From Gammaproteobacteria bacterium (GTDB lineage: Bacteria; Pseudomonadota; Gammaproteobacteria; Eutrophobiales; Eutrophobiaceae), in the NCBI GenBank assembly GCA_965238225.1, contig OZ250183.1, forward strand, positions 1,376,001 to 1,440,000: DNA of 64,000 bases, given 5' to 3'. The first letter of the stretch is position 1; the number at the start of each line of letters is the position of its first letter. The position numbers and the translations under genes were made by a program. The notes beneath the pieces were generated by a model. That model saw only the letters and a program-made list of their open reading frames with translations. It did no database searches and had not been told where the DNA came from. This document shows, piece after piece, positions 28,336 to 57,491 of this stretch.

Positions 28336-28406
28336 AAAACTTAAAAACACGGAAAACTTAGAAACACGGAAAACTTAGAAAGCACGGAAAACTTAAAAAG
28401 CACCGG
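28336..28406. repeat. 17/18-bp tandem repeat AAAACTTAGAAACACGG, ~4 copies, overlapping the stop codon of gene A
   Basis: Read directly; the last copy contains the TTA stop at 28393. Confidence 0.8.
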
Positions 28407-28899
28407 CTGTGCTGTCTACTGTAAGTGTTGAGCTGGCTGTACTGGCACTGCCTCCTGCATCAGTGATTGTTGCAATGACTTGGTAAGTGCCTTCATTAAG
28501 TGCATTAAAAACTGCTACTTGCGCACGCCATGTGTTTGGGGTTACGCTGGCATCAACAACAGGTGTATTGGTAGCAACACTGTTTACTGTTACAGAGTTT
28601 AGTGTCTCACCTGTCGCAAGTGTGCCGGTGATTTCCGGGGTGTCGTCGTTGGTCGTTAGTGCGTCCACCGTGACAGCTTGAGCCGCCTGTGTAAAAAGAC
28701 CTGTAAAAAGCCCTGCAAAAAGACCTACAAGAAGAAAGACCAGCACCAAGCGTTTTGGATTATTGTCTGTGGTGGTGCTTAATCTACTCATAATTAATCT
28801 ACTCATAATTAATCTACTCATAATTAATCTACTCATAATTAATCTACTCATAATTAATCTACTCATTAACTGCATAGGCTTACTGTTCAGTATTACCAT
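28393..28899 (-). CDS. Array gene A: truncated adhesin paralogue (signal peptide plus one Ig-like domain)
   Basis: Start MVILNSK after GAGGAATGTT, as in genes B and C. The Ig domain is nearly identical to the first domain of B. Ends abruptly at TVDSTAGAF*. Confidence 0.7.
   Translation of the reverse strand: MVILNSKPMQLMSRLIMSRLIMSRLIMSRLIMSRLIMSRLSTTTDNNPKRLVLVFLLVGLFAGLFTGLFTQAAQAVTVDALTTNDDTPEITGTLATGETLNSVTVNSVATNTPVVDASVTPNTWRAQVAVFNALNEGTYQVIATITDAGGSASTASSTLTVDSTAGAF
28779..28868. repeat. 15-bp in-frame VNTR TTAATCTACTCATAA x6 (MSRLI) in the gene A signal region
   Basis: Five perfect copies and one near-perfect copy read directly. Confidence 0.95.
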
Positions 28900-29003
28900 A
28901 ACATTCCTCAACCTTGCGATTATAGCGAACATCTTGTTGTAGAATACAATTCCTTGAGCAGTAGAATACAATTACTTGAAAGATGCAAGTATTACTCTAA
29001 AGT

Positions 29004-32000
29004 CTAAAACTCAAGACCAAGCTCGAAGTCAAAACTGTCGGTGTGCCCTGAGTCTATGATCTCAGTGCGCTCATAGCCTACTGAACCATAAGCGCCGGTT
29101 TGGGCTTTATATTCAACACCGATACCAAACTTCAAGTTGTGTGTGGCACTGCCGTCTGTAGACAGGGTGTATATTTGTCTGGTCGGGTCGCTCAGGTAAT
29201 AAAGTTCAGCGTCAGAGCTCGGACTTATATCAACACCGTATTCAGCCACACCGAAGGGTCTCAGTGCGCCTTGATTAAGCTCAATGAGACCGTCTATATC
29301 AAGCCCTGTGTACAACACTAGGGTATTTATATCTTGTTTGTTGTAAGTCAGTGCAAAGTCTGAACCAGATTCAGCAAAGTCTCCCAGACTGCTGTATGAC
29401 ACATTAACCCTGCCATAGGGAGAGAGGTTTATATCCTCTTCTTGGAATTTACCTCTGAAGGTCAAGGATGCAAATATTTGTTTTATGTCACGGCTGCCTG
29501 TGAGTAATATATTGTCATTGCCACGGCGTTTTGTATCTACATTAATGCCGCCTACACCTATCATACCTTCAATGGCAGTGTTGTTGTGCAAGTCTAGGGC
29601 AGTGTAGACCGCAAAGCTTATGGCATCTGAATTCAGTGTTGTGTCGTTATTGCCAATCTCAACATCACCTGTACCTAAGCTTACGGCAACACCTAAAAGC
29701 TGTTTGTCATTGGCTGTATATCTGTCTACGCCTAGGGAGATGTTTTGTGAGAAGCTGTCCTGTGCAGATGTGGTGGTGGTTGCATCATAATCACCTAGGG
29801 TGATATTGCCGGCAGTCCAGATTGCCCAAGTATCACTGATGCTGTTACCGCTTAAGGGGTTTAGGGCAGTCAGATGGCCTAAAGTATTGTCTAGGGTATT
29901 GTGTGCCAGTTTGGCAAATTCATTGGCGGCACGGTCGCTAAGCTCTTGTTTGAGCGCAGCAAACACAGACGTGCTGTGGTCGGCGTTATGCTTGGTATTA
30001 TTGGCCAGTGTTCTTGCCATGTTGGCAAGGCGTGCTTGGCTCACAAGGCTATTTTCTTTGGGATTATTGGCCTTATATTCTGCCTTAAAGAGTGCGTCCA
30101 GTGTCGGATGTGCAAAGTTTAAGGTTATGCCTTGATGAGACAGGTTGTTGCTGCCTTTGTGGCGGCGTAACCAGTTCATGCGGTTGGTAATGGTGGTTAC
30201 TGAGGTCTTAGTCCAGTCGACTGCTATATCAGCTTGCATGTTAACACCAGACACAACATCTTTAACTGTTGCAGGGTCAGGGGTGGGCGGTGTTGCTGAT
30301 ACGCTAAAGCTAAAAGTAGCTTGCGTCGCATCACGGCTTGCGCGGTCTACAAATGCGCCTGCTGGGATATTGACTGTGTATTCTGTACTCAGATCAAGAT
30401 TGTTGGACGGGTTGATGGTGACAGCATCAGTATCATTGGCTGTGACTTGTGCACCTGTCACATCAAGTGCTATGGCGGTGCCGCCTGTAGGGGTTAAGGT
30501 GATGGTACCTGTGCCGGCGCTGACTCGCTCACTGAAATTCAGGATAATATCAACATTGGCTGGCACCTCTGTGGCACTGTCTGTCAGTGCGTAGCTTGTA
30601 TTGTCTCTACCAAATGCGTAGGTAGTTAAGCTCGGACTGGTGGTATCAGCGGTGACAGTCAAGACAGCATTCGATGGGCTGGAAACATTACCAGCGCGGT
30701 CTTGTACAAATAATCTATAAGTGCCACTGGCTTGTGGGGCGTAAATAGAAGTAGCATTACCCGCAGCACGGGTGATGGTGGCGCCTTCTGTAAAGTTTTG
30801 CGTGCCTTCTGGTGCAAACCAGATGCTATTGCCGGCATTGCCAGAACTTGTAATGGTGACTTTTTCGTTAGCCATAGCACTTACCGCGCTGGCAAAGACT
30901 GTATCTTGAACCGTGTGGGTAGGCGCTGTGGCTGATACAGTAAAGGTAAAGATACTAGGCAGATTTGGCACAATGTTGCCGGCAAGGTCAGAGAATGATG
31001 ATGAGCCGGCGGATACTGTAACACTTTCACTCGCAACAAAGTCAACGCTTGGATTAATGCTCACCGTATTGCCCACAACTGTGATGCGTGGGTCTGCGCT
31101 GGGAATGGTTTCAGATATAACTGCGGATGTATGAAGAATGATACTGCCTGCACCGCCCGCCACTTTCATGACCACCTCATCAAAGGTCAAGATAATATTG
31201 GCATCGGTGGCAACATTTGTTGCTTGCTCGCTAATTAGATATTGCCTGCCATCTCCGAATGAATAGAATACCAATGCCGGCGCTGTGCTGTCTATGGCGA
31301 GTTCGTTGCTTGTGGTGTCTGTGCCGATATTGCCGGCTGCATCGGTGAATGTTGCACTAACCTCATAGCTGCCATCAGCAAGTGCATTGGCACTTGCCAC
31401 TGTAAAAGACCAAGTGCCATCTGTAGCAACAGTGGGTGTGTAGGTAATAGAGTTTAGCGTCACAGAAAGACTTTCTCCTGTGCCAAGCCCTACGCCTGTG
31501 TCTGTTGTGCCGGTGATGGTTGGGGTGGTGTCATTGCTGCTTAGTGCGTCAACTGTGGGTATAGGCACTGTGTTGTCTACGGTAATGGTAGTACCTGTGA
31601 TAGGGGTTGTGGTGATGGCATTGCCTGCTAAGTCTTGCCCTGTACTTAAGGTAAAGCTTTGTGCACCATCACCAGTACCGACTGTCCAGTCATAGGTATA
31701 GGTTGTTGTATTGACCCTTGTCATGTTGGCGGCAGCAATGCTCTCTACACCAGTGCCTGTAATCTGCGGGATAGGGTTAACTTTTATAGACTCAGAAAAG
31801 GCAGCAGTGATGGTAATGCTATCTCCTGCTTTTACCAGTGTGGCAGTATTAGTGCCTGTGCCATAGGTATAAGCAAGGGTGGCTGTCGGGGCTGTGGTAT
31901 CAATGGTCAGTTCGTCTGTTGAGGAGTCTGTTAGTACACTGCCTCCTGCATCAGTGATTGTTGCAACGACTTGGTAAGTGCCTTCATTAAGTGCATTAAA

Positions 32001-32246
32001 AACCACTACTTGCGCACGCCATGTGGTTGGGGTTACGCTGGCATCAATAACAGGTGTATTGGTAGTAACACTGTTTACTGTTACAGAGTTTAGTGTCTCA
32101 CCTGTCGCAAGGGTGCCGGTGATTTCTGGGGTGGTATCGTTGGTTGTTAGTGCGTCCACCGTGACAGCTTGAGCTGCCTGTGTAGAAAGACCTGTAAAAA
32201 GACCTACAAGAAAAAAGACCAGTGCCTTACTGTTCAGTATTACCAT
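29004..32246 (-). CDS. Array gene B: autotransporter adhesin with Ig-like passenger and C-terminal beta-barrel (~1080 aa)
   Basis: Signal peptide ending AAQA; Thr-rich Ig-like repeats (NDTTPTITGT, DLAGN); C-terminal domain with amphipathic strands ending FDFELGLEF; RBS favours ATG at 32246. Confidence 0.88.
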   Translation of the reverse strand: MVILNSKALVFFLVGLFTGLSTQAAQAVTVDALTTNDTTPEITGTLATGETLNSVTVNSVTTNTPVIDASVTPTTWRAQVVVFNALNEGTYQVVATITDAGGSVLTDSSTDELTIDTTAPTATLAYTYGTGTNTATLVKAGDSITITAAFSESIKVNPIPQITGTGVESIAAANMTRVNTTTYTYDWTVGTGDGAQSFTLSTGQDLAGNAITTTPITGTTITVDNTVPIPTVDALSSNDTTPTITGTTDTGVGLGTGESLSVTLNSITYTPTVATDGTWSFTVASANALADGSYEVSATFTDAAGNIGTDTTSNELAIDSTAPALVFYSFGDGRQYLISEQATNVATDANIILTFDEVVMKVAGGAGSIILHTSAVISETIPSADPRITVVGNTVSINPSVDFVASESVTVSAGSSSFSDLAGNIVPNLPSIFTFTVSATAPTHTVQDTVFASAVSAMANEKVTITSSGNAGNSIWFAPEGTQNFTEGATITRAAGNATSIYAPQASGTYRLFVQDRAGNVSSPSNAVLTVTADTTSPSLTTYAFGRDNTSYALTDSATEVPANVDIILNFSERVSAGTGTITLTPTGGTAIALDVTGAQVTANDTDAVTINPSNNLDLSTEYTVNIPAGAFVDRASRDATQATFSFSVSATPPTPDPATVKDVVSGVNMQADIAVDWTKTSVTTITNRMNWLRRHKGSNNLSHQGITLNFAHPTLDALFKAEYKANNPKENSLVSQARLANMARTLANNTKHNADHSTSVFAALKQELSDRAANEFAKLAHNTLDNTLGHLTALNPLSGNSISDTWAIWTAGNITLGDYDATTTTSAQDSFSQNISLGVDRYTANDKQLLGVAVSLGTGDVEIGNNDTTLNSDAISFAVYTALDLHNNTAIEGMIGVGGINVDTKRRGNDNILLTGSRDIKQIFASLTFRGKFQEEDINLSPYGRVNVSYSSLGDFAESGSDFALTYNKQDINTLVLYTGLDIDGLIELNQGALRPFGVAEYGVDISPSSDAELYYLSDPTRQIYTLSTDGSATHNLKFGIGVEYKAQTGAYGSVGYERTEIIDSGHTDSFDFELGLEF

Positions 32247-32337
32247 AACATTCCTCAACCTTGCGATTACAGCAAACATCTTGTTGTTAAGAATGTTAAT
32301 GATTAAAAGATGCAGTATTACACTAAAACTCTAAAGT

Positions 32338-35300
32338 CTAAAACTCAAGACCAAGCTCTAAGTCAAAACTGTCGGTGTGCCCTGAGTCTATGATCTCAGT
32401 GCGCTCATAGCCTACTGAACCATAAGCGCCGGTTTGGGATTTATATTCAACACCGATACCAAACTTCAAGTTGTGTGTGGCACTGCCGTCTGTAGACAGG
32501 GTGTATATTTGTCTGGTTGGGTCGCTCAGGTAATAAAGTTCAGCGTCAGAGCTCGGACTTATATCAGCACCGTATTCAACCACACCGAAGGGTCTCAGTG
32601 CGCCTTGATTAAGCTCAATGAGATAGTCTACATCAAGCCCTGTGTACAGCACTAGGTTATTTATATCTTGTTTGTTGTAAGTCAGTGCAAAGTCTGAACC
32701 AGATTCAGCAAAGTCTCCCAGACTGCTGTATGACACATTAACCCTGCCATAGGGAGAGAGGTTTATATCCTTTTGTTGGAATTTACCTCTGAAGGTCAAG
32801 GATGCAAATATTTGTTTTATGTCACGGCTGCCTGTGAGTAATATATTGTCATTGCCACGGCGTTTTGTATCTACATTAATGCCGCCTACACCTATCATAC
32901 CTTCAATGGCAGTGTTGTTGTGCAAGTCTAGGGCAGTGTAGACCGCAAAGCTTATGGCATCTGAATTCAGTGTTGTGTCGTTATTGCCAATCTCAACATC
33001 ACCTGTACCTAAGCTTACGGCAACACCTAAAAGCTGTTTGTCATTGGCTGTATATCTGTCTACGCCTAAGGAGATGTTTTGTGAGAAGCTGTCCTGTGCA
33101 GATGTGGTGGTGGTTGCATCATAATCACCTAGGGTGATATTGCCGGCAGTCCAGATTGCCCAAGTATCACTAATACTATCACTGATGCTGTTACCGCTTA
33201 AGGGGTTTAGGGCAGTCAGATGGCCTAAAGTATTGTCTAAAGTATTGTGTGCCAGTTTGGCAAATTCATTGGCGGCACGGTCGCTAAGCTCTTGTTTGAG
33301 CGCAGCAAACACAGACGTGCTGTGGTCGGCGTTATGCTTGGTATTATTGGCCAGTGTTCTTGCCATGTTGGCAAGGCGTGCTTGGCTCACAAGGCTATTT
33401 TCTTTGGGATTATTGGCCTTATATTCTGCCTTAAAGAGTGCGTCCAGTGTCGGATGTGCAAAGTTTAAGGTTATGCCTTGATGAGACAGGTTGTTGCTGC
33501 CTTTGTGGCGGCGTAACCAGTTCATGCGGTTGGTAATGGTGGTTACTGAGGTCTTAGTCCAGTCGACTGCTATATCAGCTTGCATGTTAACACCAGACAC
33601 AACATCTTTAACTGTTGCAGGGTCAGGGGTGGGCGGTGTTGCTGATACGCTAAAGCTAAAAGTAGCTTGCGTGGCATCACGGCTTGCGCGGTCTACAAAT
33701 GCGCCTACTGGGATATTGACTGTGTATTCTGCACTCAGATCAAGATTGTTGGACGGGTTGATGGTGACAGCATCAGTATCATTGGCTGTGACTTGTGCAC
33801 CTGTCACATCAAGTGCTATGGCGGTGCCGCCTGTAGGGGTTAAGGTGATGGTACCTGTGCCGGCGCTGACTCGCTCACTGAAATTCAGGATAATATCAAC
33901 ATTGGCTGGCACCTCTGTGGCACTGTCTGTAAGTGCATAGCTTGTATTGTCTCTACCAAATGCGTAGGTAGTTAAGCTCGGACTGGTGGTATCAGCGGTG
34001 ACAGTCAAGACAGCATTCGATGGGCTGGAAACATTACCAGCGCGGTCTTGTACAAATAATCTATAAGTGCCACTGGCTTGTGGTGCGTAAATAGCAGTAG
34101 CATTGCCCGCAGCACGGGTGATGGTGGTGCCTTCTGTAAAGTTTTGCGTAGATTGCGGTGCAAACCAGATGATATCATCAGCATTACCAGAACCTACAAC
34201 AGTAATCGCTGCGTTAGCCATGCCACTGACCGCACTGGCAAAGACTGTGTCTTGATCGGTGGGGGTAGCCGCTGTGGCTGATGTACCAAAGCGAAGGACT
34301 TCCACTATAGATGTAAAAGCGTTGCCGGCAAGGTCAGAGAATAATGATCCGATACTTAATACAACATCTCTACCCGCAATAAAGTTGATGCTTGGATCGA
34401 TGGTCACTGTATTGCCAGCCACTGTGATGCGTGGGTCTGCGCTGAGAATGGTTTCAGCTATAGGTGTAAGACCTAATGATACGCCTGATTGAATTAGGAT
34501 ATCGCCGCCCGCCACTTTCATGACTGCCTCATTAAAGGTCAAGATAATATTGGCATTGGTGGCAGCATTTGTTACTGTTTCGCTCTCGGTAAATAGATAT
34601 TGCCTGCCATCTCCGATGGCATAGGAGACCAATGCTGGTCTTGTGCCGTCAATGGCGAGTTCGTTGCTGGTGGTGTCTGTGCCGATATTGCCAGTTGCAT
34701 CGGTGAATGTTGCACTAACCTCATAGCTGCCATCAGCAAGTGCATTGGCACTTGCCACTGTAAAAGACCAAGTGCCATCTGTAGCAACAGTGGGTGTGTA
34801 GGTAACAGCGTTTAGCGTCACAGAAAGGCTTTCTCCTGTGCCAAGTGCTATGCCTGTGTCTGTTGTGCCGGTGATGGTTGGGGTGGTGTCATTGGTGGCT
34901 AGTGCGTCAACTGTGGGTACAGGCGCTGTGTTGTCTATGGTAATGGTGGTCCCTGCGGTAGGGGTTGCGGTGATGGTGTTGCCTGCTAAGTCTGTGCCTG
35001 TGCTTAGGGTGAAGCTTTGTGCACCATCACCTGCGCCTACTGTCCAGTCATAGTTATAGGTTGTTGCATTGTGTTTTGTCATGTTGGCGGCAGCAATGTT
35101 CTCTACACCAGAGCCTGTGATTTGCATGACAGGGCTATCTGCCATGGGCTCGTCGAATTTGGCATTAACAATTATGGCATCCCCTGCTTTTACGACACTG
35201 ACAATGATATTACCGCCAGTTTGTTTCAAGTAATAGCGCAGGTAGGCTGTGGGGGCTGTATTGTCTACGCTTAAGGTGGCGGTTGATGGGCTAGAGACAT

Positions 35301-37819
35301 TGCCTACGCTGTCTTGTATAAATAATTTATAGTCGCCTGTGGTTGTGGGGGCTGTAATTGAAGTGGCAGTGCCTGTGGCACGGGTGATGGTGTTGCCTAT
35401 GACAAAGTTTGTGGTGCCTGCTGGGGCAAACCAAACGCTGTTACTTGCATCGCCCGAGCTTGTCGATGGGGACTGTCGCACTGCCGGCAACAGCCCTGCT
35501 GGTAGCAAAGACTGTGTTTTGATTGGTGGGCGCTTGTGTGTCTACGCTTAAGCTCGCGGTTGATGGGCTAGAGACATTACCTGCGCTGTCTTGTACAAAT
35601 AATTTATAGTCGCCTGCTGTTGCAGGGGCTGCAATTGAAGTGGCAGTGCCTGTGGCGCGGGTGATGGTGTTGCCTGCAACAAAGTTTGTGGTGCCTGTTG
35701 GGGCAAACCAAACGCTGTTACTGGCTACGCCTGAGCTTATGATGGGGACTGTCGCACTGCCGGCAACAGCCCTGATATTAGAATTAAAGACTGTGTTTTG
35801 ATTGCTGGGGCTTAAGTTGTCTACGGTGATGCTGGCACCAGATGTGGGGGTTGCGGTGACTGTATTGCCTGTTAAGTCTTGCCCTTGGCTTAAAGTGAAT
35901 GTTTGTGTGCCATCGCCAGTACCGACTGTCCAAGCATAGGTGTAGGTTGTTGCATTGACCCTTGTCATGGTGGCGGCAGAGACAGTATGTGCGCCAGTGC
36001 CGGCAATGCGCATGGCAGGGCTACCTTTCATAGACTCAGAAAAGGCAGCAGTGATGGTGATGTTGGTGCCTTGGTTTACCTGTGTGGCAGTATTAGTGCT
36101 TGTGCCATAGGTATAAGCAAGGGTGGCTGTGGGGGCTGTGTTGTCTACGATGATGCTGGCACCTGAGACAGGGGTCGCGGTGATGGTATTGCCTGCTAAG
36201 TCTGTGCCGTCGCTTAGGGTGAATGTTTGTGTGCCATCACCAGTACCGACTGTCCAAACATAGGTATAGCTTGTTGCATCAACCCTTGTCATGTTGGCGG
36301 CAGAGACAGTATGTGCACCAGTGCCTGTAATCTGCGGGATAGGGAATAATGCTATGTCCTCATTAAAGTCAGCAGTGATGGTGATGCTGGTGCCTTGGCT
36401 TACGCGTGTGGCAGTATTAGTGCTTGTACCATAGGCATAAGTAAGGATGGTTATCGGGCTTAGGTTGTCTACGGTTAAGGTGGCCGTTGATGGGCTAGAA
36501 ACATTGCCTACGCTGTCTTGTACAAATAATTTATAGTCGCCTGCTGTTGCAGGGGCTGTAATCGAAGTGGCAGTGCCGCTTGCAGCGCGGGTTATGGTGC
36601 TACTTGCACTAAAGTTTGTAGTGGTGGCTGGGGCAAACCAAACGCTGTTACTGGCTACGCCTGAGCTTATGATGGGGACTGTCGCACTGCCGGCAACAGC
36701 CCTGCTGGTAGCAAAGACTGTGTTTTGATTGGTGGGGGCTGTATTGTCTACAGTAATGCTGGCACCAGATGTGGGGGTTGCGGTGACTGTATTGCCTGTT
36801 AAGTCTTGCCCTTGGCTTAGAGTGAATGTTTGTGTGCCATCACCAGTACCGACTGTCCAAGCATAGGTATAGCTTGTTGCATTGACCCTTGTCATGTTGG
36901 TGGCAGAGACAGTATGTGCGCCAGTGCCGGCAATGCGCATGGCAGGGCTACCTTTCATAGACTCAGAAAAGGCAGCAGTGATGGTAATGCTATCTCCTGC
37001 TTTTACCCGTGTGGCAGTATTAGTGCTTGCGCCATAGGTATAAGCAAGGGTGGCTGTTGGGGCTGTGTTGTCTACGATGATGCTGGCACCTGAGACAGGG
37101 GTCGCGGTGATGGTATTGCCTGCTAAGTCTGTGCCGTCGCTTAGGGTGAATGTTTGTGTGCCATCATTTGCGCCTACTGTCCAAGCATAGGTATAGCTTG
37201 TTGCATCAACCCTTGTCATATCTGTTGCAGAGACAGTATGTGCGCCAGTGCCTGTAATCTGCGGGACAGGGAGTAATGCCATGTCCTCATTAAAGGTGGC
37301 GGTGATGGTGATGCTGGTGCCTTGGCTTACGCGCGTGGCAGTATTAGTACCCGTACCATAGGTATAAGCGAGGGTGGCTGTGGGGGTTGTGGTATCTATT
37401 GTAAGTGTTGCGTTGGTTGCACTGACAATGCCTCCTGCAAAGATTGTTGCAACGACTGCGTAAGTGCCTTCATTAAGTGCATTAAGAACCGCTACTTGCG
37501 CACGCCATGTGTTTGGGGTTACGCTGTTATCAATAACAGGTGTATTGGTAGCAACACCGTTTACCGTTACACCGACTAGTCCATCACCTGTCGCAAGTGT
37601 GCCGGTGATTGTTGGCGTTGTATCGTTGGTTGTTAGTGTATCAACCGTAATAGCTCGAGCCGCCTGTGCAGACAAAGCTGCAAGAAAAAAGACCAGCGCC
37701 AAGCGTTTTGTTAAGTTTATCATGCTGCCAAGACCCCCAAGCGTATTACTTGGAATCTTGTTTGTGGTGGTGCTTAATTTACCAATTAACTGCATAGGTT
37801 TACTCTTCAGTATTACCAT
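32338..37819 (-). pseudogene. Array gene C: autotransporter adhesin (~1826 aa if joined), split by a +1 frameshift near 35464 (ORF pieces 35441..37819 and 32338..35508)
   Basis: GAGCTTGTCGATGGGG at ~35456-71 versus GAGCTTATGATGGGG in two sister repeats. The N-part has the signal peptide; the C-part has the barrel ending FDLELGLEF. Confidence 0.85.
35520..37390. repeat. ~927-bp internal duplication (three-domain block) in gene C
   Basis: Shadow ORFs at 35903 and 36830 are near-identical at offset 927; the protein block repeats. Confidence 0.85.
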
Positions 37820-37946
37820 AACATTCCTCGAAATAGGCTGTAGTCGATGACTTTAAGAGTTCTGCACGACTTTGCATGACTTTGCGATTATAGCGAACAT
37901 CTGCTGTAGAATACAATACTTAAAGATGCAAGTATTACACTAAAGC

Positions 37947-38010
37947 CTAAAACTCCAAGGTCAACTTCTAAATCGAAACTGTCTGTATGTCTTGAGTTTA
38001 TGGCTTCAAT
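37947..38010 (-). pseudogene. Vestige of the last autotransporter beta-strand downstream of gene D
   Basis: Translates IEAINSRHTDSFDLEVDL(g)EF* versus TEIIDSGHTDSFDLELGLEF* in C; out of frame with D. Confidence 0.8.
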
Positions 38011-42853: not shown

Positions 42854-43251
42854 AACGTTAATACTCCGTCATCTTGTTTGCATTATACTTACACCTAAAA
42901 TTTATACCACTTAAATATCTAACTTAGATTAATTACACCTGATGATTCTATACCCATCTGCTGCATACTCATCTGCTGGTTGATTGCCAATTACTTGTTA
43001 GTATTGACCAATCCTTAACTGGCATAGATTTTAAATAATTTCAAGTGCCTTTTTAAACTGTGCTGCATCCTACAAAAATTCTTTTAGCTTGTTTTAAACC
43101 CTTAGTCTCGTTTTGGTTACAATAAGTTCCTAAAAGATAAAGAGGGCTACCCCAGATAAGTAGGTTATAGTTACCTTAAGGCATTGTTTTAACTGTTTTA
43201 ATTAGTTTAATTGCTTATTATGTGACAGCCCTTAATAGATCGATATTAAGC

Positions 43252-43316
43252 CTAAAAACTCCAAGGTCAACTTCTAAATCGAAACTGTCTGTGTGTCTTG
43301 AGTTTATGGCTTTAAT
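43252..43316 (-). pseudogene. Vestige of the last autotransporter beta-strand downstream of gene E
   Basis: Near-identical to 37947-38010 (IKAINSRHTDSFDLEVDL...). Confidence 0.8.
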
Positions 43317-44036
43317 ACATGTAGAGCTTGCTGTGCCCATAGATCGTGTTCCTAGGTAGATTGGTTATGTGTCGTACCGTCCTGCAAATGACTTGCAATT
43401 GTTTAAATCCACTTCTATTGTGCCGCCGGATGTAGGTTCGCTCACCACCACATTGCCTGCTGAGTCTTCGCCTCGGCTTAGTGTAAATGTTTGTGTGCCG
43501 CCATCAGTGCTCACCACAGTCCAGAGATAGTAATAGGTTCTTGCATTGGCTCTTGTCATGCTGGCAGCAGCAATGCTATCTACACCAGTGCCTGTAATTT
43601 GCGCGGTAGGGAATAATGCCATGTCCTCATTAAAGGTGGCGGTGATACGTACCACATCCCCTACGTTTACTCGAGTCACAGGACTTCCATCTACGGTATA
43701 GGTGAGTTCGGCTGTGGGCGCTGTGCTATCCACTATAATTGTAGTAGATGTGGATGCCATTACATTGCCTGCTAAGTCTGTGCCTTGGCTTAGTGTAAAT
43801 GTTTGTGTGCCATCACCTGTGCTTGCTGTCCAGAAATAGTGAAAGGTTCTATTACTATCTCTTGTCATATTGGTGGCAGCAATGGGCTCTAAACCGGTAC
43901 CTGTGATTTGTATGGGGGGCGTATCTACTATGTCCTCATTGAAGGTAGCAATAACAATCATGTTATCTCCTTGTTTTACTTGGGTGACAACAACAGCAAT
44001 ACCATTAATGCTTTTGTAATAAGTGAGTGTAGCGGT

Positions 44037-47000: not shown

Positions 47001-47136
47001 TCTAACGCTACAGAAAGGGTTTCGCTTAAGCTAAGTGCTGTGCTTGCGCCTATTGTGCCTGTGATTTCAGGGGTTGTGTCATTGCTGGTTAGTGTATTGA
47101 CTGTAGGGGTAGCAGGGGCTGTGGTGTCTACGGTAA
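44037..47136. repeat. 279-bp (93-aa Ig-like domain) tandem repeat, 11 essentially identical copies
   Basis: Shadow ORFs recur from 44197 to 46995 with period 279; one interval is 288 (9-bp insertion) and one is 278 (1-bp deletion). Confidence 0.95.
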
Positions 47137-48110
47137 TGGTGGTAGATGTAGGTGTTATTACATTACCTGCTAAGTCTTCGCCTTGGCTTAGTGTGAATGT
47201 TTGTGTGCCATCACCTGTGCCTGTTGTCCAGAAATAGTGAAAGGTTCTATTACTATCTCTTGTCATATTGGTGGCAGCAATGGGCTCTAAACCAGTGCCT
47301 GTGATTTGCACGGGAGGCGTATTTGCCATGTCCTCACTAAACTCAGCACTGATGATGATGACATCCCCTGCGTTTGCTTCAGTAATACCGTAACTAATGC
47401 CGTTTATTCTTTTGTAATAAGAAAGTTCGACAGTGGGGGCTGTGGTATCCACGGTAACGATAATAACAGTGCTTACGGGTACCACCGCATTACCTGCTAA
47501 GTCTTCGCCTTGGCTTAGTGTGAATGTTTGTGTGCGACCATCACCTATGCCTGCTGTCCAGAAATAGTGAAAGGTTCTATCACTATCTCTTGTCATATTG
47601 GTGGCAGCAATGGGCTCTAAACCAGTGCCTGTGATTTGCACGGGAGGCGTATTTGCCATGTCCTCACTAAACTCAGCACTGATGATGATGACATCCCCTG
47701 CGTTTGCTTCAGTAATACCGTAACTAATGCCGTTTATTCTTTTGTAATAAGAAAGTTCGACAGTGGGGGCTGTGGTATCCGCGGTAACGATAATAATAGT
47801 GCTTACGGGTACCACCGCATTACCTGCTAAGTCTTCGCCTTGGCTTAGTGTGAATGTTTGTGTGCGGCCATCACTTATGCTTGCTGTCCAGAAATAGTGA
47901 AAGGTTCTATTACTATCTCTTGTCATATTGGTGGCAGCAATGGGCTCTAAACCAGTGCCTGTGATTTGCACGGGAGGACTATTTGCCATGTCCTCACTAA
48001 ACTCAGCACTGATGATGATGACATCCCCTGCGTTTGCTTCAGTAATACCGTAACTAATGCCGTTTATTCTTTTGTAATAAGAAAGTTCGACAGTAGGGGC
48101 TGTGGTATCT
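47130..48110. repeat. 330-bp (110-aa) tandem repeat, 3 copies, in gene E
   Basis: Shadow ORFs at 47306, 47636, 47966; YYKRINGISYGITE domain three times. Confidence 0.9.
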
Positions 48111-51100
48111 ATTATGGTAAGTTCGTTTGTTGTAGTGTCTGTACTGACATTGCCTGCTGCATCAGTAATTGTTGCAATGACGTTATGGATGCCACCGGTA
48201 AGTGGTGTATTGGCTGTAAAAGACCATGTGCCATCTGTAGCAACAGTGGGTGTGTAGGTTGTGCCATTTAAGGCAACAGAGAGTGTCTCACCTGTAAGAA
48301 GTGCGTTACCTGTGCCTGTTGTGCCTGTGATTACAGCAGGTGTGCTGGTGTTGCTGGTTAGTGTATTGACTGTGGGAGTCGCAGGGGCTGTGCTATCCAC
48401 TGTAATTGTAGCAGATGCGGGTTCCATCACATTGCCTGCTAAGTCTGTGCCGTTACTCAAAGAAAATGTTTGTATGCCATCACCAGTACCCACTGTCCAA
48501 GAATAGCGAAAGGTTCTATTGCTATATCTTATCATATCGGTGGTAGCAATAAAATTTACCCCCGTGCCTGTGATTTTCATGGGAGGACTATCTGCTATGT
48601 CCTCATTGAATTCGGTATTGATAATGATGACATCCCCTGCTTTTACCTTAGAAAACTCGGTAAGACCGTAACTAATGCCGTTTATACTGAGGTAAGAACG
48701 AACATCGGCTGTAGGGGCTGTGCTATCCACTGTAATTATAGTAGCTGTGGATGCCATCACATTGCCTGCTAAGTCTGTACCTTGGCTTAAGCGAAATGTT
48801 TGTATGCCATCACCTGTGCCTACTGTCCAGAAATAGTGAAAGGTTCTATTACTATCTCTTGTCATATTGGTGGCAGCAATAGGATCTACACCAGTACCTG
48901 TGATTTGTATGGGGGGCGTATCTCCTATGTCCTCATTGAATTCGGCACTGACAATGATGACATCCCCTACTTTTGCTTCGGTAAAACCATAACTAATGCC
49001 GTTTATTCTTTTGTAATAAGAAAGTTCGACAGTAGGGACTGTGGTGTCTACGGTAAGCTCGTTTGATGTAGTATCTGTGCTGACATTGCCTGCTGCATCT
49101 GTGGCTGTTGCAATGACGTTATAGGTGCCATCAGCAAGTGGTGTATTGGCTGTAAAAGACCATGTGCCATCTGTAGCAACAGTGGGTGTGTAGGTTGTAC
49201 CATTTAAGGCAACAGAGAGTGTCTCACCTGTAAGAAGTGCGTTACCTGTGCCTGTTGTGCCTGTGATTTGTGGTGTTGTGTCATTGCTGGTTAGTGTATT
49301 GACTGTAGGGGTAGCAGGGGCTGTGTTGTCTACGGTAATAGTGGTAGATGTAGGTGTTATTACATTACCTGCTAAGTCTGTGGCTTGGCTTAGTGTAAAT
49401 GTTTGTGTGCCATCGCCTGTGCCTACTGTCCATCTATGGTAATAGGTTATTGCATTGAATCTTGTCATGTTGGTGGTGGCGGTAGGATCTACGCCAGTGC
49501 CTGTGATTTGTATGGCAGGCGTATCTGCTATGTCCTCACTAAACGTAGCATTGACAATGATGACATCCCCTGCTTTTACCTTAGAAAACTCGGTAAGACC
49601 GTAACTAATGCCGTTTATACTGAGGTAAGAATGAACATCGGCTGTAGGGGCTGTGGTGTCTATGGTAAGTTCGTTTGATGTAGTGTCTGTGCTGATATTG
49701 CCTGCTGCATCTGTGAATGTTGCAACGACTTCGTAGGTTCCGCTGGTAAGTGCATTAGCATTACTTACTGTAAAAGACCATGTGCCATCTGTAGCAACAG
49801 TAGGTGTGTAGCTTGTGCCATCTAACGCTACAGAAAGGGTTTCTCCTGTAGTAAGTGCTATGCCTGTGCCTGTTGTGCCTGTGATGATAGGGGTTGTGTC
49901 ATTGCTGGTCAGTGTATTGACTGTAGGGGTAGCAGGGGCTGTGTTGTCTACGGTAATGGCAGCAGATGTAGATGCCATTACATTGCCTGCTAAGTCTGTG
50001 CCGTCGCTTAGTGTAAATGTTTGTGTGCCATCGCCTGTGCCTACTGTCCAAAAATAGTAATAGGTTATTGCATTGAATCTTGTCATGCTAGTTACAGCAA
50101 TGGGATCTACGCCAGTACCTGTGATCTGCATATGAGGCGTATATGCGATGTCCTCATTGAAGGTAGCAATAACAATCATGTTATCTCCTTGTTTTACTTG
50201 GGTGACAACAACAGCAATGCCATTAATGCTTTTGTAATAAGTGAGTGTAGCGGTAGGGGCTGTGGTATCTATGGTAAGTTCGTTTGATGTAGTGTCTGTA
50301 CTGACATTGCCTGCTGTGTCTGTGGCTGTTGCAATGACGTTATAGGTGCCACCAGTAAGTGCATTAGCATTACTTACTGTAAAAGACCATGTGCCATCTG
50401 TAGCAACAGTAGGTGTATAGGTTGTGCCATCTAACGCTACAGAAAAGGTTTCGCTTAAGCTAAGTGCTGTGCTTGTGCCTATTGTGCCTGTGATTTGTGG
50501 TGTTGTGTCATTGCTGGTTAGTGTATTGACTGTAGGGGTAGCAGGGGCTGTGTTGTCTACGGTAATGGCAGTAGATGTAGATGCCATTACATTGCCTGCT
50601 AAGTCTGTACCTTGGCTTAGTGTAAATGTTTGTGTGCCATCGCCTGTGCCTACTGTCAATCTATAGGTGTAGATTGTTGTATTGAATTTTGTCATGTTGG
50701 TGGCAGCAATGGGATTTACACCAGTACCTGTAATTTGCATGGCAGGCGTATCTGCTATAGGTTCGCTGAATCTAGCATGGACGATGACGGCATCCCCTGC
50801 TTTTACTGCAGGTATACGATAATTAGCTCCTATACGATAACTCATGCCGTTTACTCTTAGCCAAGAACGGACATCGGCTGTGGGGGCTGTGGTGTCTACG
50901 GTCAGCTCGTTTGATGTAGTGTCTGTGCTGACATTGCCTGCTGTGTCTGTGACTGTTGCAATGACGTTATAGGTGCCACCAGTAAGTGCATTAGCATTAC
51001 TTACTGTAAAAGACCATGTGCCATCTGTAGCAACAGTAGGTGTATAGGTTTCACCATTTAAGGCAACAGAGAGTGTCTCACCTGTAAGAAGTGTGCTACC

Positions 51101-53430
51101 TGTGCCTATTGTGCCTGTGATTTGATAGGGGTTGTGTCATTGCTGGTCAGTGTATTGACTGTAGGGGTAACAGGGGCTGTGTTGTCTACGGTAATGGCAG
51201 TAGATGTAGGTGTTATTACATTGCCTGCAAAGTCTGTGCCTTGGCTTAGTGTGAATGTTTGTGTGCCATCACCTGAGCCGACTTCCCAAAGATAGTAAGT
51301 GCGTCGATAGGAATCTTGTATCATTCTGCTTGTAGCGATGGTGTTTGCCCCTGTGCCTGTGATCTGCATGGGAGGGTCTCTTGTGATGTCCTCATTGAAG
51401 GTAGCAATAACAATCATGTTATCTCCTTGTTTTACTTGGGTGACAACAACAGCAGTGCCGTTAATGTGTTTGTAATAAATGAATGTAGCGGTAGGGGCTG
51501 TGGTATCTATGGTAAGTTCGTTTGATGTAGTATCTGTGCTGACATTGCCTGCTGTGTCTGTGGCTGTTGCAGTGACGTTATAGGTGCCACCAGTAAGTGG
51601 TGTATTGGCTGTAAAAGACCATGTGCCATCTGTAGCAACAGTGGGTGTGTAGCTTGTGCCATCTAACGCTACAGAAAAGGTTTCGCTTAAGCTAAGTGCT
51701 GTGCTTGTGCCTATTGTGCCTGTGATTTCAGGGGTTGTGTCATTGCTGGTTAGTGTATTGACTGTAGGGGTAGCAGGGGCTGTGGTGTCTACGGTCAGTT
51801 CGTTTGATGTAGTATCTGTGCTGACATTGCCTGCTGTGTCTGTGACTGTTGCAGTGATGTCGTAAGTGTCATCAGCAAGTGTATTGACTGTAAAAGACCA
51901 TGTGCCATCTGTAGCAACAGTAGGTGTATAGGTTTCACCATTTAAGGCAACAGAGAGTGTCTCACCTGTAAGAAGTGTGCTACCTGTGCCTATTGTGCCT
52001 GTGATTTGTGGTGTTGGGTCATTGCTGGTTAGTGTATTGACTGTAGGGGTAACAGGGGCTGTGTTGTCTACGGTAATGGCAGTAGATGTAGATGCCATTA
52101 CATTGCCTGCTAAGTCTGTGCCGCCGCTTAGTGTGAATGTTTGTGTGCCATCACCTGAGCCGACTTCCCAAAGATAGTAAGTGTGTCGATAGGAATCTTG
52201 TATCATCCTGCTTGTAGCGATGGTGTTTGCCCCTGTGCCTGTGATCTGCATGGGAGGGTCTCTTGCGATGTCCTCATTGAAAGTGACATCGACAATCATG
52301 TTATCTCCTTGTTTTACTTGGGTGACAACAACAGCAGTGCCGTTAATGTGTTTGTAATAAATGAATGTAGCGGTAGGGGCTGTGGTATCTATGGTAAGTT
52401 CGTTTGATGTAGTGTCTGTGCTGACATTGCCTGCTGTGTCTGTGGCTGTTGCAATGACGTTATAGGTGCCATCAGCAAGTGGTGTATTGGCTGTAAAAGA
52501 CCATGTGCCATCTGTAGCAACAGTGGGTGTATAGGTTTCACCATTTAAGGCAACAGAGAGTGTCTCACCTGTAAGTAGTGTGCTACCTGTGCCTATTGTG
52601 CCTGTGATTTCAGGGGTTGTGTCATTGCTGGTTAGTGTATTGACTGTAGGGGTAATAGGGGCTGTGGTGTCTATTATAAGTTCGTTTGATGTAGTGTCTG
52701 TACTTACATTGCCTGCTGTGTCTGTGGCTGTTGCAGTGATGTCGTAAGTACCATCAGCAAGTGTATTGGCTGTAAAAGACCATGTGCCATCTGTAGCAAC
52801 AGTAGGTGTATAGGTTTCACCATTTAAGGTAATAGAGAGTGTCTCACCTGTAAGAAGTGTGCTACCTGTGCCTGTTGTGCCTGTGATGACAGGGGTTGTG
52901 TCATTGCTGGTTTGTGTATTAATCGTGGGTGTAGTAACAGGGGTTATGCCTATCACTGTAATGGTGTTAGACGTGGTTTCGACAGTGTCCGTGCCTTGGT
53001 GGGTTAAAGTAAATGTTTGTATGCCAACAGCATCATCGTTGATGATCCATGAATAGTAATAGATCTCTCCGAACACTACACTAGAGTATCTCGTCATACT
53101 GGTTGCAGGAAAGCTATGTGCACCAGTACCCGTGATTTCTATGCTAGGATTATCTGCCCATACTATTCCTCCAAGGTCTGTGGCGATGATAAATACATTA
53201 TTCCCTGCTTCTACTTGAGTAACAGTCCGACCATTCATCAAATAAATGAGTGTAGCTTCGGGTGCTGCCTGTGCTACCTGTGCAGAAAATCCTGCAAGGA
53301 AAAAGACCAGTATGAGACGTTTTAGTAGATTAGCTTTGCCTAACATAACGTTAATATTCCGTCATCTGTTTGCGTTATATTTACACCTAAATTTATACCA
53401 CTTATATCTAACATAGTATAACTACACCTT

Positions 53431-53973
53431 AAAACCTTAGCCTGTCTTTATGCAAGCAGAATGCAAGCAAATAGTAATGATTAAATCCTATTACCAATAA
53501 CCATATTGACTCCTGAACTATAACAACTATACAACTATACAACTATACAACTATATACAACTATATAACTATATTGACTCTGACTGCCTGAACCGATACA
53601 GGTTCAATAACATCTAAAATATAGAACATCTAAAATATAGCTTTAAATCTTGTTTTATTCCCCTAAGTCCTACTCTAGATTATTATTATTATACGAGAAC
53701 CTGAGAATACCAAAGTGCTGATTGGCAGCGTCGGTGATGTTGATTCGAATATACCGAACTCCTGTTGGATCATTCTTGATGAGTACATCACTGGTAGACT
53801 GCTTGGTAGTCAGTGTTTGCGTTTCAGAAACCGAAGATTGCCCGTATCCACCTTGGTACATAGTCTGAGCAGTCCAGTTTGTGCCATCTGCTGATGTCTG
53901 GATCTGATAAGTAATATTTTGCCTGGTGTAGTTTGGGCTGCCATCTGCATTCGCTCGACCAAAAGCAAGTCCT
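53431..53973. repeat. Copy 1 of a direct duplication (3' end of gene F plus downstream spacer with short CAACTATA tract); copy 2 at ~56169-57222
   Basis: AAAACCTTAGCCTGTCTTTATGCAAGC...CAAAAGCAAGTCCT shared by both copies. Confidence 0.9.
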
Positions 53974-56063
53974 ATCCTATTTAGAGTGATTGGATTTTCC
54001 ACGTCTATTTGCCACCAAGCCGAATTAGTGCCACTGCCTGCATCCCAGTAGGTAGATCGATAACCATCAATTGCGCCACATGCTGTGGATGAGTTTATGG
54101 ATGCGCTGGCGGTTTTACCAATAGCCAGCCCTTTAATTGGCACAGCTACAGACTCAAGTTCCTCAGGCAAACTGGCAATAATACTGCTGATGGTTCTAGG
54201 GGCAGTAATACTGCTCTGTTGACCCGCATTGGCTACCAGAGCCTCGGGCATATCTGCTAGGGTGCCACTGCCATTGCTATAAATTATGTTGTTGTCTCCT
54301 TGGGTGACATTACACCCATTACAAAAATATCCGCTCAGGCGACCATAGTAATTTGAGGAGATATTATAGACACCGTTTGAATCGAACTGTGCCCCGCGAG
54401 TGCCGTTATCCATGTAGATTCCAAGAGTCATCCTAGTCCCTGATGACGGGAGTTTGCCATCGTGAATCAAATTGGACAGGATTCTCATTTTAGGAGATGC
54501 GCCCAGATTGTAAATGCCGGCGGTATCTCCAAGTTTCTGTGTATAATTATAAATCCTGTTATGGAGAATCAGATTGTCTCGTACAACCGTCGCTGAATTG
54601 TAGGCCTTACCCGTATTGTCCGTAATAAAATTGAAATTATTTACATCATAACGACCCCAGCCCCAGCCGATTGAGATCCCACCAGCAGGCAGATTATGGA
54701 TAGTATTGTTAATGATGACCGTTCGTTCGGTGTAATTCACCTTTAACCCTACTGCATCGTAATATTCTACGCCTACATTATGGATCAGATTATTATCTAT
54801 CAGATTGTCTTTCACTGCCTTGTCTCGGGGGATATGGTGATCCTGCAGGTTACCAATAACCACGGAAGAAGCCGATATATCGGTGAAGGTGTTATTGAAG
54901 ACAGTATTGTATTGAGATGATCTACCCAAACGTAAGCCATTGGCACCTAGGTGTTTGAAGGTATTATCTTCAAACAACAAATAGGATGATTTTTCAAAAT
55001 GTACATTGCCTGGTGTTTCTTCCAAGCCATCGAAAGCATCTTCGATGGTAATATAATCAGGGTCTGTCAAGACAGCACCGGATTGAATGCTGACATAGCC
55101 TTTCGGTGAGCTGGGGAGCAGCCAAGTCGCATAAGAAAACTGTAAGCCTTCAAAGGTGATATCTCGCACACCGATACCATTCACCAGTTTCTCCAGCCTT
55201 GGCAGCACAACCGATACGGCATTTGCACCGGTCATCGATTCACCGCTGCGCGGTTTGTAGTAAAGTGTGTCTGTACTGCGATTGAGATACCATTCTCCTG
55301 CGACATTCAGTTCCTCAAAGACATTTTCCACCCAGGCTGGGTTTACTCCATAAGTCCAGCTGGGAGCTGCGCCTACATTGCCAAAAGGACCCAACTTAGC
55401 CAGCGCCCAATGTTCATCTGTAACTGTTGCCACGCCTCCTGATATAGACTTGATCAGTCCACGATCCATTTTCCAGTTGTGCAGTATTACCAATTCAATA
55501 TCACTTTGATTGGCCCAGTTAGCCGTCCCCGCAGGTGCTCCATATTCACCAGTGCCTCTGTCTTTGTAGTACCACCCACCACCACCGCCAGTTCTGGCGC
55601 GCGTAGCACGCTTACCATTAACATAAAGCTGGCGGGCATGGGACTCCGAAGACACGGATGCCTGCCAGATACCATCATTGTCGGGGTCTGTCCAAGCAGT
55701 GATCACACTGCCGCCACTGATAATTACTTGCCCTGGATTTTGAGCCTTATATATGACCTTATAGCCGTCTTTTCCTGAATCTAGGGAAGTCAGACTAAAA
55801 GTCTTTGACAATTCATAGGTGCCATCCTGCAAAATAACATACACGTCACCGCTGAAACTGTCGGTTTGTCGACCATCACGAATGTAATCTCGAGCTTTCT
55901 CCAGTGTCTTCCAAGGCGAAGCACTGGTACCCGTATTTGAATCACTGCCAGACGGCGCAAGGTAGAGGGTTGTTTCTGCCATTGAGGCTGTACTGAATAA
56001 TACGCAAACAGTGCACAATGCACAAACAACACTGACTGGAGATGCCTTATTCCAACTAGTCAT
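53670..56063 (-). CDS. Gene F: secreted right-handed beta-helix protein (GH141-like glycosidase candidate) with C-terminal F5/8-type C (discoidin)-like domain
   Basis: Signal peptide; YLAPSGSDSNTGT...PWKTLEKARD; ARQLYVNGKRATRAR; GEWYLNR; Asn/Ile beta-helix repeats; GISIGWGW; AIDG...TYW...WWQIDV...YIRINIT. Confidence 0.8.
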   Translation of the reverse strand: MTSWNKASPVSVVCALCTVCVLFSTASMAETTLYLAPSGSDSNTGTSASPWKTLEKARDYIRDGRQTDSFSGDVYVILQDGTYELSKTFSLTSLDSGKDGYKVIYKAQNPGQVIISGGSVITAWTDPDNDGIWQASVSSESHARQLYVNGKRATRARTGGGGGWYYKDRGTGEYGAPAGTANWANQSDIELVILHNWKMDRGLIKSISGGVATVTDEHWALAKLGPFGNVGAAPSWTYGVNPAWVENVFEELNVAGEWYLNRSTDTLYYKPRSGESMTGANAVSVVLPRLEKLVNGIGVRDITFEGLQFSYATWLLPSSPKGYVSIQSGAVLTDPDYITIEDAFDGLEETPGNVHFEKSSYLLFEDNTFKHLGANGLRLGRSSQYNTVFNNTFTDISASSVVIGNLQDHHIPRDKAVKDNLIDNNLIHNVGVEYYDAVGLKVNYTERTVIINNTIHNLPAGGISIGWGWGRYDVNNFNFITDNTGKAYNSATVVRDNLILHNRIYNYTQKLGDTAGIYNLGASPKMRILSNLIHDGKLPSSGTRMTLGIYMDNGTRGAQFDSNGVYNISSNYYGRLSGYFCNGCNVTQGDNNIIYSNGSGTLADMPEALVANAGQQSSITAPRTISSIIASLPEELESVAVPIKGLAIGKTASASINSSTACGAIDGYRSTYWDAGSGTNSAWWQIDVENPITLNRIGLAFGRANADGSPNYTRQNITYQIQTSADGTNWTAQTMYQGGYGQSSVSETQTLTTKQSTSDVLIKNDPTGVRYIRINITDAANQHFGILRFSYNNNNLE

Positions 56064-56253
56064 GAGAAATACCTCTGTCTTTGAACTTACCTTAAAACCT
56101 TAGCCCTTACATGTTTTATATTGTATTGCCTATATAAACAGCAATACCTACATAAACAACCAACTGCAAAAACCTTAGCCTGTCTTTATGCAAGCAAAAT
56201 GCAAGCAAATAGTAATGATTAAATCCTATTACCAATAACCATATTGACTCCTG

Positions 56254-56790
56254 AACTATACAACTATACAACTATACAACTATACAACTATACAACTATA
56301 CAACTATAAACTACAATATACAACTATACAATATACAACTATACAACTATACAACTATACAACTATACAACTATACAACTATACAACTATACAACTATAC
56401 AACTATACAACTATACAACTATACAACTATACAACTATACAACTATACAACTATACAACTATACAACTATACAACTATACAACTATACAACTATACAACT
56501 ATACAACTATACAACTATACAACTATACAACTATACAACTATACAACTATACAACTATACAACTATACAACTATACAACTATACAACTATACAACTATAT
56601 ACAACTATACAACTATACAACTATACAACTATACAACTATACAACTATACAACTATACAACTATACAACTATACAACTATACAACTATACAACTATACAA
56701 CTATACAACTATACAACTATACAACTATACAACTATACAACTATACAACTATACAACTATACAACTATACAACTATACAACTATACAACT
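56254..56790. repeat. 8-bp microsatellite (CAACTATA)n, ~67 units, non-coding
   Basis: 537 bp read directly, with a few imperfect units. Confidence 0.97.
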
Positions 56791-56924
56791 GACTCTGACT
56801 GCCTGAACCGATACAGGTTCAATAACATCTAAAATATAGAACATCTAAAATATAGCTTTAAATCTTGTTTTATTCCCCAGATCCTACTCTACGCCTGAAC
56901 CATTTAACTTACAACACCCATCAA

Positions 56925-57491
56925 TCAACCATTATTATTATACGAGAACCTGAGAATACCAAAGTGCTGATTGGCAGCGTCGGTGATGTTGACTCGAATA
57001 TACCGAACTCCTGTTGGATTATTCTTGATGAGTACATCACTGGTAGACTGCTTGGTAGTCAGTGTTTGCGTTTCAGAAACCGAAGATTGCCCGTATCCAC
57101 CTTGGTACATAGTCTGAGCAGTCCAGTTTGTGCCATCTGCTGATGTCTGGATCTGATAAGTAATATTTTGCCTGGTGTAGTTTGGGCTGCCATCTGCATT
57201 CGCTCGACCAAAAGCAAGTCCTGCAGTGCCTGTGATGACAGGGGTTGTTGCAACGACTTGAAGAACGCCTACTTGCGCACTCCATGTGTTTCCACTAACA
57301 ACAGGTGTATTGGTAGCAACACCGTTTACCGTTACAGAGTCTAGTGTCTCGCTGGCAGTAATAAGTGTGCCTGTGATTGTTGGTGTTGTATCGTTGGTCG
57401 TTAGTTTATCCACCGTGACAGCATGTGCCGCCTGCGTAAACAAAACTGCAGACACTACAACCAGCACTAAACGTTTCAGTAATTTCGTCAT
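56925..57491 (-). CDS. Array gene G: chimera of adhesin signal peptide and partial Ig domain fused to the last ~95 aa of gene F
   Basis: N-terminus VTVDKLTTNDTTPTITGT resembles A/B/C; C-terminus GLAFGRANADG...FSYNNN is nearly identical to F; GAGG RBS upstream. Confidence 0.75.
   Translation of the reverse strand: MTKLLKRLVLVVVSAVLFTQAAHAVTVDKLTTNDTTPTITGTLITASETLDSVTVNGVATNTPVVSGNTWSAQVGVLQVVATTPVITGTAGLAFGRANADGSPNYTRQNITYQIQTSADGTNWTAQTMYQGGYGQSSVSETQTLTTKQSTSDVLIKNNPTGVRYIRVNITDAANQHFGILRFSYNNNG

Follow-up and report, generated by a model that had tools for sequence, protein, structure and literature searches.

Evidence for a recombining, concertedly evolving family of immunoglobulin-repeat surface-protein genes in a closed gammaproteobacterial genome

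Results and Discussion

A tandem array within a dispersed gene family

The window analysed here, 64,000 nucleotides (nt) of gammaproteobacterial DNA (G000:C1:1376001-1440000, G000 being the genome under study), carries a tandem array of seven genes, G, F, E, D, C, B and A, all on the - strand. A sequence-only reading of this DNA had proposed such an array, and it exists over just the interval assigned to it. Six of the genes are built from immunoglobulin-type (Ig) modules and belong to a family of 11 (A-E, G and H-L; F is not counted) at four loci of G000, and the view that this is a recombining, concertedly evolving surface-protein family is well supported. Coordinates are window positions unless marked kb or G000:C1, and those of the array are collected in Table 1.

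Table 1. Genes, repeats and remnants of the array, in window positions
Feature	Position	Strand	Description
G	56925..57491	-	Signal peptide and partial Big_13-type module fused to a copy of the F C-terminal F5/8 (CBM32-like) region
8-bp microsatellite, x67.5	56254..56790	.	Between G and F
F	53670..56063	-	Secreted beta-helix glycoside hydrolase, GH141-like, with C-terminal F5/8; Pfam GH141_M, Beta_helix, F5_F8
Same 8-bp microsatellite, x6.9	53516..53573	.	Between F and E
E	43365..53346	-	Barrel-less Q/B/P gene, ~3,300 codons, three frames, breaks near 51126 and 46963
330-bp P-module repeat in E, x2.9	47161..48109	-	97%
279-bp Big_13 repeat in E, x11.1	44037..47136	-	99%; missing from E allele P0165
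Decayed final barrel-gene codons behind E stop	43246..43312	-	76-80% to six barrel-gene ends
D	38057..42853	-	Intact, 1598 aa, barrel-less
Decayed barrel tail behind D stop	37940..38007	-	78-81% to six barrel-gene ends
C	32338..37819	-	Ig-passenger autotransporter, two frames, one frameshift near 35462
Hypervariable Big_5-type module of C	34273..34650	-	
Constant block of C	32338..33993	-	Last Big_5, helical linker and barrel
B	29004..32279	-	Intact 1091-aa Ig-passenger autotransporter
Hypervariable Big_5-type module of B	30927..31292	-	
Constant block of B	29004..30647	-	Modelled Ig domain, linker helix and 12-stranded barrel
A	28393..28971	-	Signal peptide and one Big_13 module
15-bp in-frame repeat in A leader, x5.9	28779-28866		H and I have other copy numbers
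Type IV pilin-like gene bounding the array	27816..28271	+	Behind tRNA-Gln (27486-27559)

Hidden Markov models seeded from module coordinates found 34 B, 22 P, 6 S, 5 W and 3 Q passenger modules in the window, together with two barrels. Among these five passenger types, B corresponds to Big_13 and S to Big_5; P, W and Q are named weakly or not at all by Pfam. As the sequence-only reading had it, Pfam places an autotransporter barrel in B and C only, and Big_13 and Big_5 in the passengers. Other parts of that description need amending. F, which had been counted among the genes built from shared domain types, is a glycoside hydrolase and not a module paralogue (closest structure PDB 5MQP, BT_1002, E 1e-42), whereas the six other genes are so built. 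Both end genes had been called terminal stubs; A is a short gene, but G joins an adhesin start to a copy of the F 3' end. Sharing that was said to be almost base-for-base holds for B and C only. Their common block runs to 2950 nt at 91%, with the barrel-proximal 1.6 kb mostly 98-100% identical per 150-column window, whereas the ends of D and E share 600 nt at 88% and A and B share 298 nt at 91%. G and F share 496 nt at 90%, a block made of the F 3' end and spacer with 7 mismatches; the copy at G includes the 8-bp microsatellite. At x67.5, this microsatellite has the highest copy number among the G000 tandem repeats of period 5-60, and the copies upstream of F and E are a possible slippage-driven tuner of expression.

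The window had been taken for the whole system, but five more family genes lie at three other loci. H, I and J (1,030-1,046 kb) are intact and have barrels. K (1,103-1,113 kb; 7 frame switches) joins a D/E-type passenger to a divergent barrel, only 58-60% identical to that of gene B, and L (1,568-1,577 kb, G000:C1:1568525-1576698; 2 frame switches) is barrel-less. A classical autotransporter barrel thus ends 6 of the 11 genes, at least four of them intact (B, H, I and J). Because the shared ends of D and E are alike and each gene is followed by the decayed last codons of a barrel gene, D and E are best read as deletion derivatives that lost their barrel. The first 2 kb (5') of D and its upstream DNA, of which ~380 nt is in common, are 96% identical to L at 1,575-1,577 kb. 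Neither the barrel region nor D was matched in any of 10 congeners, several of whose genomes are incomplete, and in JGI metagenomes the barrel region had 80 pattern matches, none of them a relative.

Two side observations concern these outlying genes. L bears a C-terminal GH16 domain (a weak match to a kappa-carrageenase model) on its long Ig stalk, and a barrel-gene tail of ~50 codons stands alone directly upstream of H (G000:C1:1030023-1030178), a remnant of a deleted copy.

Classical-order autotransporters with Ig passengers

The barrels of B and C match PF03797 at Pfam E 8e-29 and 9e-30. In an AlphaFold model of the C-terminal 551 residues of gene B (mean pLDDT 81.7), a 34-residue linker helix with a core pLDDT >90 precedes 12 long strands, and a segment of ~110 residues between helix and barrel is modelled at low confidence. 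The best Foldseek matches of this barrel are 9OQA, 3KVN, 8BNZ and 1UYO, and the proteins are AaaA, EstA, EspP and NalP. Five consecutive modules of C gave an all-beta model that matches Ig tandems (SiiE 2YN5, extender 6XI3, titin), and the B-type module matches NCBIfam NF033510, Ca_tandemer. All 11 family genes have a signal-peptide-like N-terminus (basic-hydrophobic-AxA), as judged by eye.

With the passenger N-terminal, then the linker helix, then the barrel, B and C are predicted to be classical-order (type Va) autotransporters with Ig passengers. D, E, A and G have no PF03797 match, and all that stands behind D and E is a decayed tail. We rejected an inverse, type Ve assignment for B and C, whose barrel is C-terminal and not N-terminal, and also a type I secretion system (T1SS) or RTX Ig-repeat adhesin, as no RTX family is among the Pfam matches and the leaders are Sec-like.

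The layout agrees with that of the type Va proteins EstA, AaaA, EspP and NalP in its N-terminal signal peptide and passenger, linker helix and C-terminal 12-stranded PF03797 barrel; it differs in that the passenger is a chain of Ig domains and in the extra ~110-residue segment. According to an excerpt of PMC6555100, a beta-helix is the usual type Va passenger, and chains of Ig domains are characteristic of the inverse type Ve. With T1SS Ig-repeat adhesins (SiiE, MpIBP-type extenders) the G000 genes share the Ca_tandemer module, a stalk like SiiE 2YN5 and 6XI3, and variable repeat number, but here there is a Sec-type leader, an own barrel, and a multi-gene family instead of a single giant gene. 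A search with the linker-barrel unit gave 1,268 relatives at E up to 0.001, and 24 of the 30 scanned (from the top 150) carry Ig-type Big_5, Big_12 or He_PIG domains, with lectin, vWA and DUF285 tips frequent. The class of Ig-passenger classical autotransporters itself therefore appears widespread and common in metagenomes.

A uniform barrel block next to a hypervariable module

We compared the constant block, that is, the last S module and barrel (557 columns), between four G000 genes (B, C, H and I) and P0001, P0004 and P0005, which are proteins from other ENA assemblies. All comparisons with these other-assembly alleles, which may come from one strain or several, are at protein level. Only 50 columns vary, with 9 fixed between the two sets and 17 polymorphic in both, and identity is 96.7-99.1% within G000, 97.4-98.7% within the other set and 94.5-96.4% between them. 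There are thus within-lineage derived states that are absent from the other lineage. The barrels appear to be homogenised within the strain, which is a signature of concerted evolution.

Two steps upstream of the last S module lies another S (Big_5) module that behaves quite differently, at 61-76% identity between paralogues (I and P0005 reach 96%). P0001 and C agree at 99% in their P, B and W modules but at 66% in the variable module between. Seven proteins hold 6 distinct alleles of it, and G000 contains no second near-identical copy of any. Pairwise ratios of nonsynonymous to synonymous substitution (dN/dS; six pairs each, no significance test) are 0.60-1.47 in the variable module, 0.20-0.55 in W and 0.36-0.56 in the barrel. 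Medians of 0.47 for B modules and 0.60 for P modules indicate purifying selection on the stalk. The variable module is a likely candidate for the binding site.

Rearranged alleles in other assemblies and runs

The proposal that the locus changes like an accordion, with modules shuffled by recombination, gains from two kinds of evidence: other-assembly proteins, and a junction, 39722->38392, that is absent from G000. P0165 matches E over nine consecutive modules at 99-100% identity and keeps its barrel-less C-terminus, but lacks the 11x279-bp array and has two P modules whose closest G000 counterparts reach only 64% and 73%; repeat collapse could explain the array loss, but not the new modules. 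P0169 carries the D allele of the second B module inside E, with a break at another place than in G000 E. In P0167 and P0012, D modules 9-14 or 10-14 (81-93%) stand ahead of distal L modules (76-92%), and D and L, the parts of this mosaic, are ~150 kb apart in G000. C is close to gene I in its upstream part and to P0001 in its downstream part.

The junction was found in contigs of runs X1 and X2, which come from one sample of one study (56% and 54% of words shared). It matches P0167 and P0012 and is not in the four loci of G000, and 7 of the 10 listed X1 variants at it fall in codons where P0167 differs from D. It is the one corroborated joint among 18 tested in these runs; 12 were dropped as evidence of rearrangement since other places in the four G000 loci explain them, and 6 were not found there. 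Together, the other-assembly proteins and the junction in an independent run contradict a single invariant arrangement, the outcome named beforehand as refuting the proposal. Rearrangement among strains appears to be real. Runs X3 and X4 gave no contigs placed on the window. None of the contigs shown for these runs spans the C frameshift, and the stretch compared does not reach the frameshifts of E.

Further observations come from the same contigs. A 940-nt barrel contig of X1 differs from C at only five places, which vary among the G000 paralogues themselves, and X1 was therefore set aside as the source of P0001, P0004 and P0005. Summed depth is ~41 over the barrel block and ~10 at the pilin gene, a ratio in keeping with four copies, though as a hint only, depth not being copy number. 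In the related population, barrel genes contain long loose ends at 30411, 33757 and 34398 (X1, X2); a search of G000 for one of them found nothing, and it could be an insertion or an unseen allele. One X1 contig skips a 17-bp repeat at the A stop (28336-28403).

Mosaics of this kind could instead come mainly from DNA exchange between co-occurring strains and not from within the chromosome. The best templates that G000 offers for the variable alleles of P0001 and P0004, and for several of the P modules in P0165 and P0167, are distant (64-76%), as that explanation would predict, and the analogous exchange between meningococcal tpsA and tpsC is rare and uses outside DNA in the part of PMC3848433 that covers it. 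We nevertheless think it improbable as the chief source, because copying inside the lineage is needed to fix strain-specific states in every paralogue across separate loci and to account for the D/L and D/E blocks of identity within G000. Both processes can coexist.

Complete genes rather than silent cassettes

The barrel-less and frameshifted copies had been proposed as a silent reservoir for the B/C barrel, a role that our analysis does not support. The family falls into two module pools, A/B/C/H/I/J and D/E/K/L, and the nearest neighbour in another gene lies within the own pool for 130 of 134 modules. The best identity between a D/E module and one of B/C/H/I is 76%. A D/E passenger on a B/C barrel, the fusion suggested as a test, occurs in none of the seven B/C-type barrel proteins (4 in G000, 3 in other assemblies).

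A system of the pilE/pilS or vlsE type, in which one expressed barrel gene is fed by silent barrel-less or frameshifted copies and varies within the population, would account for a hypervariable module between conserved flanks, with its 6 alleles in 7 proteins and two pairwise dN/dS values above 1.4. It would also suit the positions of the two E frameshifts, each of them at or next to the boundary of a block that the other E allele lacks (a pattern expected of mixed populations), and the microsatellites upstream of F and E. We regard such a system as unlikely. Each of the 11 copies begins with a start and signal-like leader of its own, no fewer than four barrel genes are intact, D and E share no module above 76% with B/C/H/I, and the variable alleles lack near-identical second copies in G000. 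Known pilS donors are without promoters and ribosome-binding sites (PMC4534519, in excerpt), whereas each copy here has its own N-terminus, and high-identity donor flanks are confined to the D/E/K/L pool. In two stretches scanned for promoter-like sites there was no excess over shuffles, which is uninformative either way. These results point to ongoing recombination among complete genes and not to a programmed silent-cassette switch.

Frameshifts and assembly quality

Module DNA holds 12 frame switches in 48.7 kb compared with 7 in 197 kb of ordinary genes, a density about seven times higher. Of the three breaks in the window, two look like blends of a pair of paralogous alleles; at the third, one base has been lost from the first of the eleven near-identical repeat units. 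Individual frameshifts are, in our judgement, somewhat more probably consensus errors than lesions.

The same excess and the same blends, together with the unconfirmed copy number of the 11x279-bp array, could be taken to mean that mis-assembly of one or two genes has produced the paralogy. We consider this very improbable, because the copies carry distinct modules at 55-100% identity, C, E, I and J have orthologues in other assemblies, an X2 contig links the E barrel remnant to the D upstream region (43008-43339), and the GC skew of G000 traces two replichores cleanly. No inversion between the opposed H/I and B/C loci is visible in that skew.

A third concern is non-adaptive repeat turnover in a decaying, repair-deficient genome, with most copies pseudogenes on their way out. 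Set against congeners, 4 of 185 ordinary genes are frameshifted and 14 alignments have in-frame stops; D, E, A, G and K are truncated or broken, and mismatch repair (MMR) genes were not found in G000. Against this, dN/dS is mostly <1 in stalk and barrel modules, the H/I/J locus has no frame switch in 9.8 kb of modules, and the same design recurs independently in three other genomes of the bacterial family. On this evidence we would give the idea little chance of being the main explanation.

Mismatch repair and a proposed mechanism

The sequence-only reading had noted no reverse transcriptase and no recombinase at the array, and a genome-wide search agrees, with no reverse transcriptase and no serine resolvase; the two tyrosine recombinases of G000 both lie far from it. 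A shufflon or a diversity-generating retroelement was rejected on these grounds, there being no linked invertase or recombinase and no reverse transcriptase. recA is present and intact. In the closed, 100% complete G000, mutS, mutL and nucS were not found, and MutS is present in 55 of the 60 genomes of the bacterial family and 8 of the 10 of the genus. mutL is over the cut-off in 8 of 10 genus genomes, not in G000, and the closed congener G004 is also without mutS and mutL. In E. coli-Salmonella crosses, loss of MutS or MutL gives about a thousandfold more recombination across 16% divergence (PMC6382021, in excerpt).

Three genomes whose barrels are unrelated to those of G000 have the same layout of constant barrel and variable passenger, at dispersed loci (L047-L066). 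In G004, 8 of 9 examined loci share a block of ~1.1 kb at 96-99.5%. G052, with MutS present, shares its block among all 5 examined loci, mostly at 97.7-99.9%, and G054, also with MutS, has two groups at 89-95% among 6 examined of its 12 barrel matches. We therefore rejected MMR loss as a necessary cause. As a separate observation, open frames in G073 run to as many as 21,139 codons and match a barrel weakly.

We propose that the Ig-stalk family probably evolves by unprogrammed, likely RecA-dependent ectopic recombination. Gene conversion would keep the export and anchor block uniform, and unequal exchange between repeated modules would alter stalk length and move tips, such as the GH16 of L, between genes. 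Loss of MutS and MutL may lower the barrier to exchange between modules of 75-95% identity and let microsatellites expand. The products would be Sec-exported, self-displayed adhesins or glycan-binding stalks. D, E, A and G would be by-products of deletion and fusion, which may donate to K and L and are presumably not dedicated silent cassettes, and most frameshifts would be consensus errors or recent lesions, not switches.

Several points weigh against this explanation. No recombination event was directly observed. Polishing can homogenise near-identical copies within an assembly and collapse the 279-bp array, and part of the mosaics could come from inter-strain exchange. MMR loss is not needed, given the homogenised barrels of the MutS-bearing G052 and G054, and in B. 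subtilis loss of MutSL has little effect below 15% divergence (same excerpt of PMC6382021). No export route is evident for the barrel-less D and E; type II secretion was considered and rejected for them, as the GspD and GspE models stayed under cut-off and T2SSK gave one weak match. Finally, we infer adhesin function, from domain type only, and likewise expression and exchange rate.

Relation to known systems

Tandem autotransporters with variation in copy number and size and with proposed barrel-less derivatives are described for Bartonella iba/badA and pbhR (PMC3610622, in excerpt). As far as that excerpt goes, the iba/badA case resembles ours in all these respects, and differs in its beta-helix or trimeric passengers and its linkage to a gene transfer agent, whereas G000 has Ig modules, four loci and neither MutS nor MutL. 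Silent-cassette systems (Neisseria pilE/pilS, Borrelia vlsE, Anaplasma msp2) likewise place a variable segment between conserved flanks, and their variation proceeds by RecA-type conversion and is sensitive to mutS loss (excerpt of PMC4534519); G000 appears to have neither 5'-truncated donors nor a single expression site. Meningococcal tpsA/tpsC share a cassette-like layout in a type V system, suggestive of antigenic variation. That exchange there proved rare and drew on outside DNA (PMC3848433, same part) calls for caution with the G000 array.

In the literature searched (mostly open-access, supplements excluded) we found no published account of this family. To our knowledge, recombining surface-protein families are known mainly from cultured pathogens. 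G000 shows a uniform anchor, one hypervariable module and cross-locus exchange in an uncultured lineage, on Ig-passenger classical autotransporters, and one module can be singled out for study as the likely candidate site of binding. The four genomes also provide a natural comparison for MMR loss, with G000 and G004 lacking MutS, G052 and G054 having it, and all four homogenising their barrels. It is conceivable, though on present evidence doubtful, that the bacterial family has repeatedly evolved a repertoire of constant barrels and variable passengers, and that G000 is an active diversity generator, with Big_5 cassette swaps under diversifying selection, moving enzymatic tips and MutS/MutL loss speeding exchange within the population, all with no dedicated recombinase.

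Genome setting and other observations

G000 is closed, a single contig of 1,722,049 bases. The closest relatives of its HisZ (76-81% identity) are mostly from metagenome-assembled genomes of uncultured Gammaproteobacteria or Proteobacteria, and from genome size and gene decay a host association is plausible. In both closed congeners rnr precedes a gene whose G000 counterpart sits at 1,289 kb, which places the array at a synteny break specific to G000. Pilin-like genes flank both the window array and the H/I/J locus (G000:C1:1043154-1050917), and there are 10 matches to such genes in G000 compared with 4 in G004 and 3 in G005.

Elsewhere in the genome, a 1004-codon frame (G000:C1:209139-212153) has a start that we take to resemble Cas9. 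RTX-repeat genes with common 3' ends lie at G000:C1:796572-814177, 1174039-1181085 and 1654039-1660164; in two copies separated by 850 kb, 600 nt are 99.8% identical, the same constant-end pattern in a T1SS-type family.

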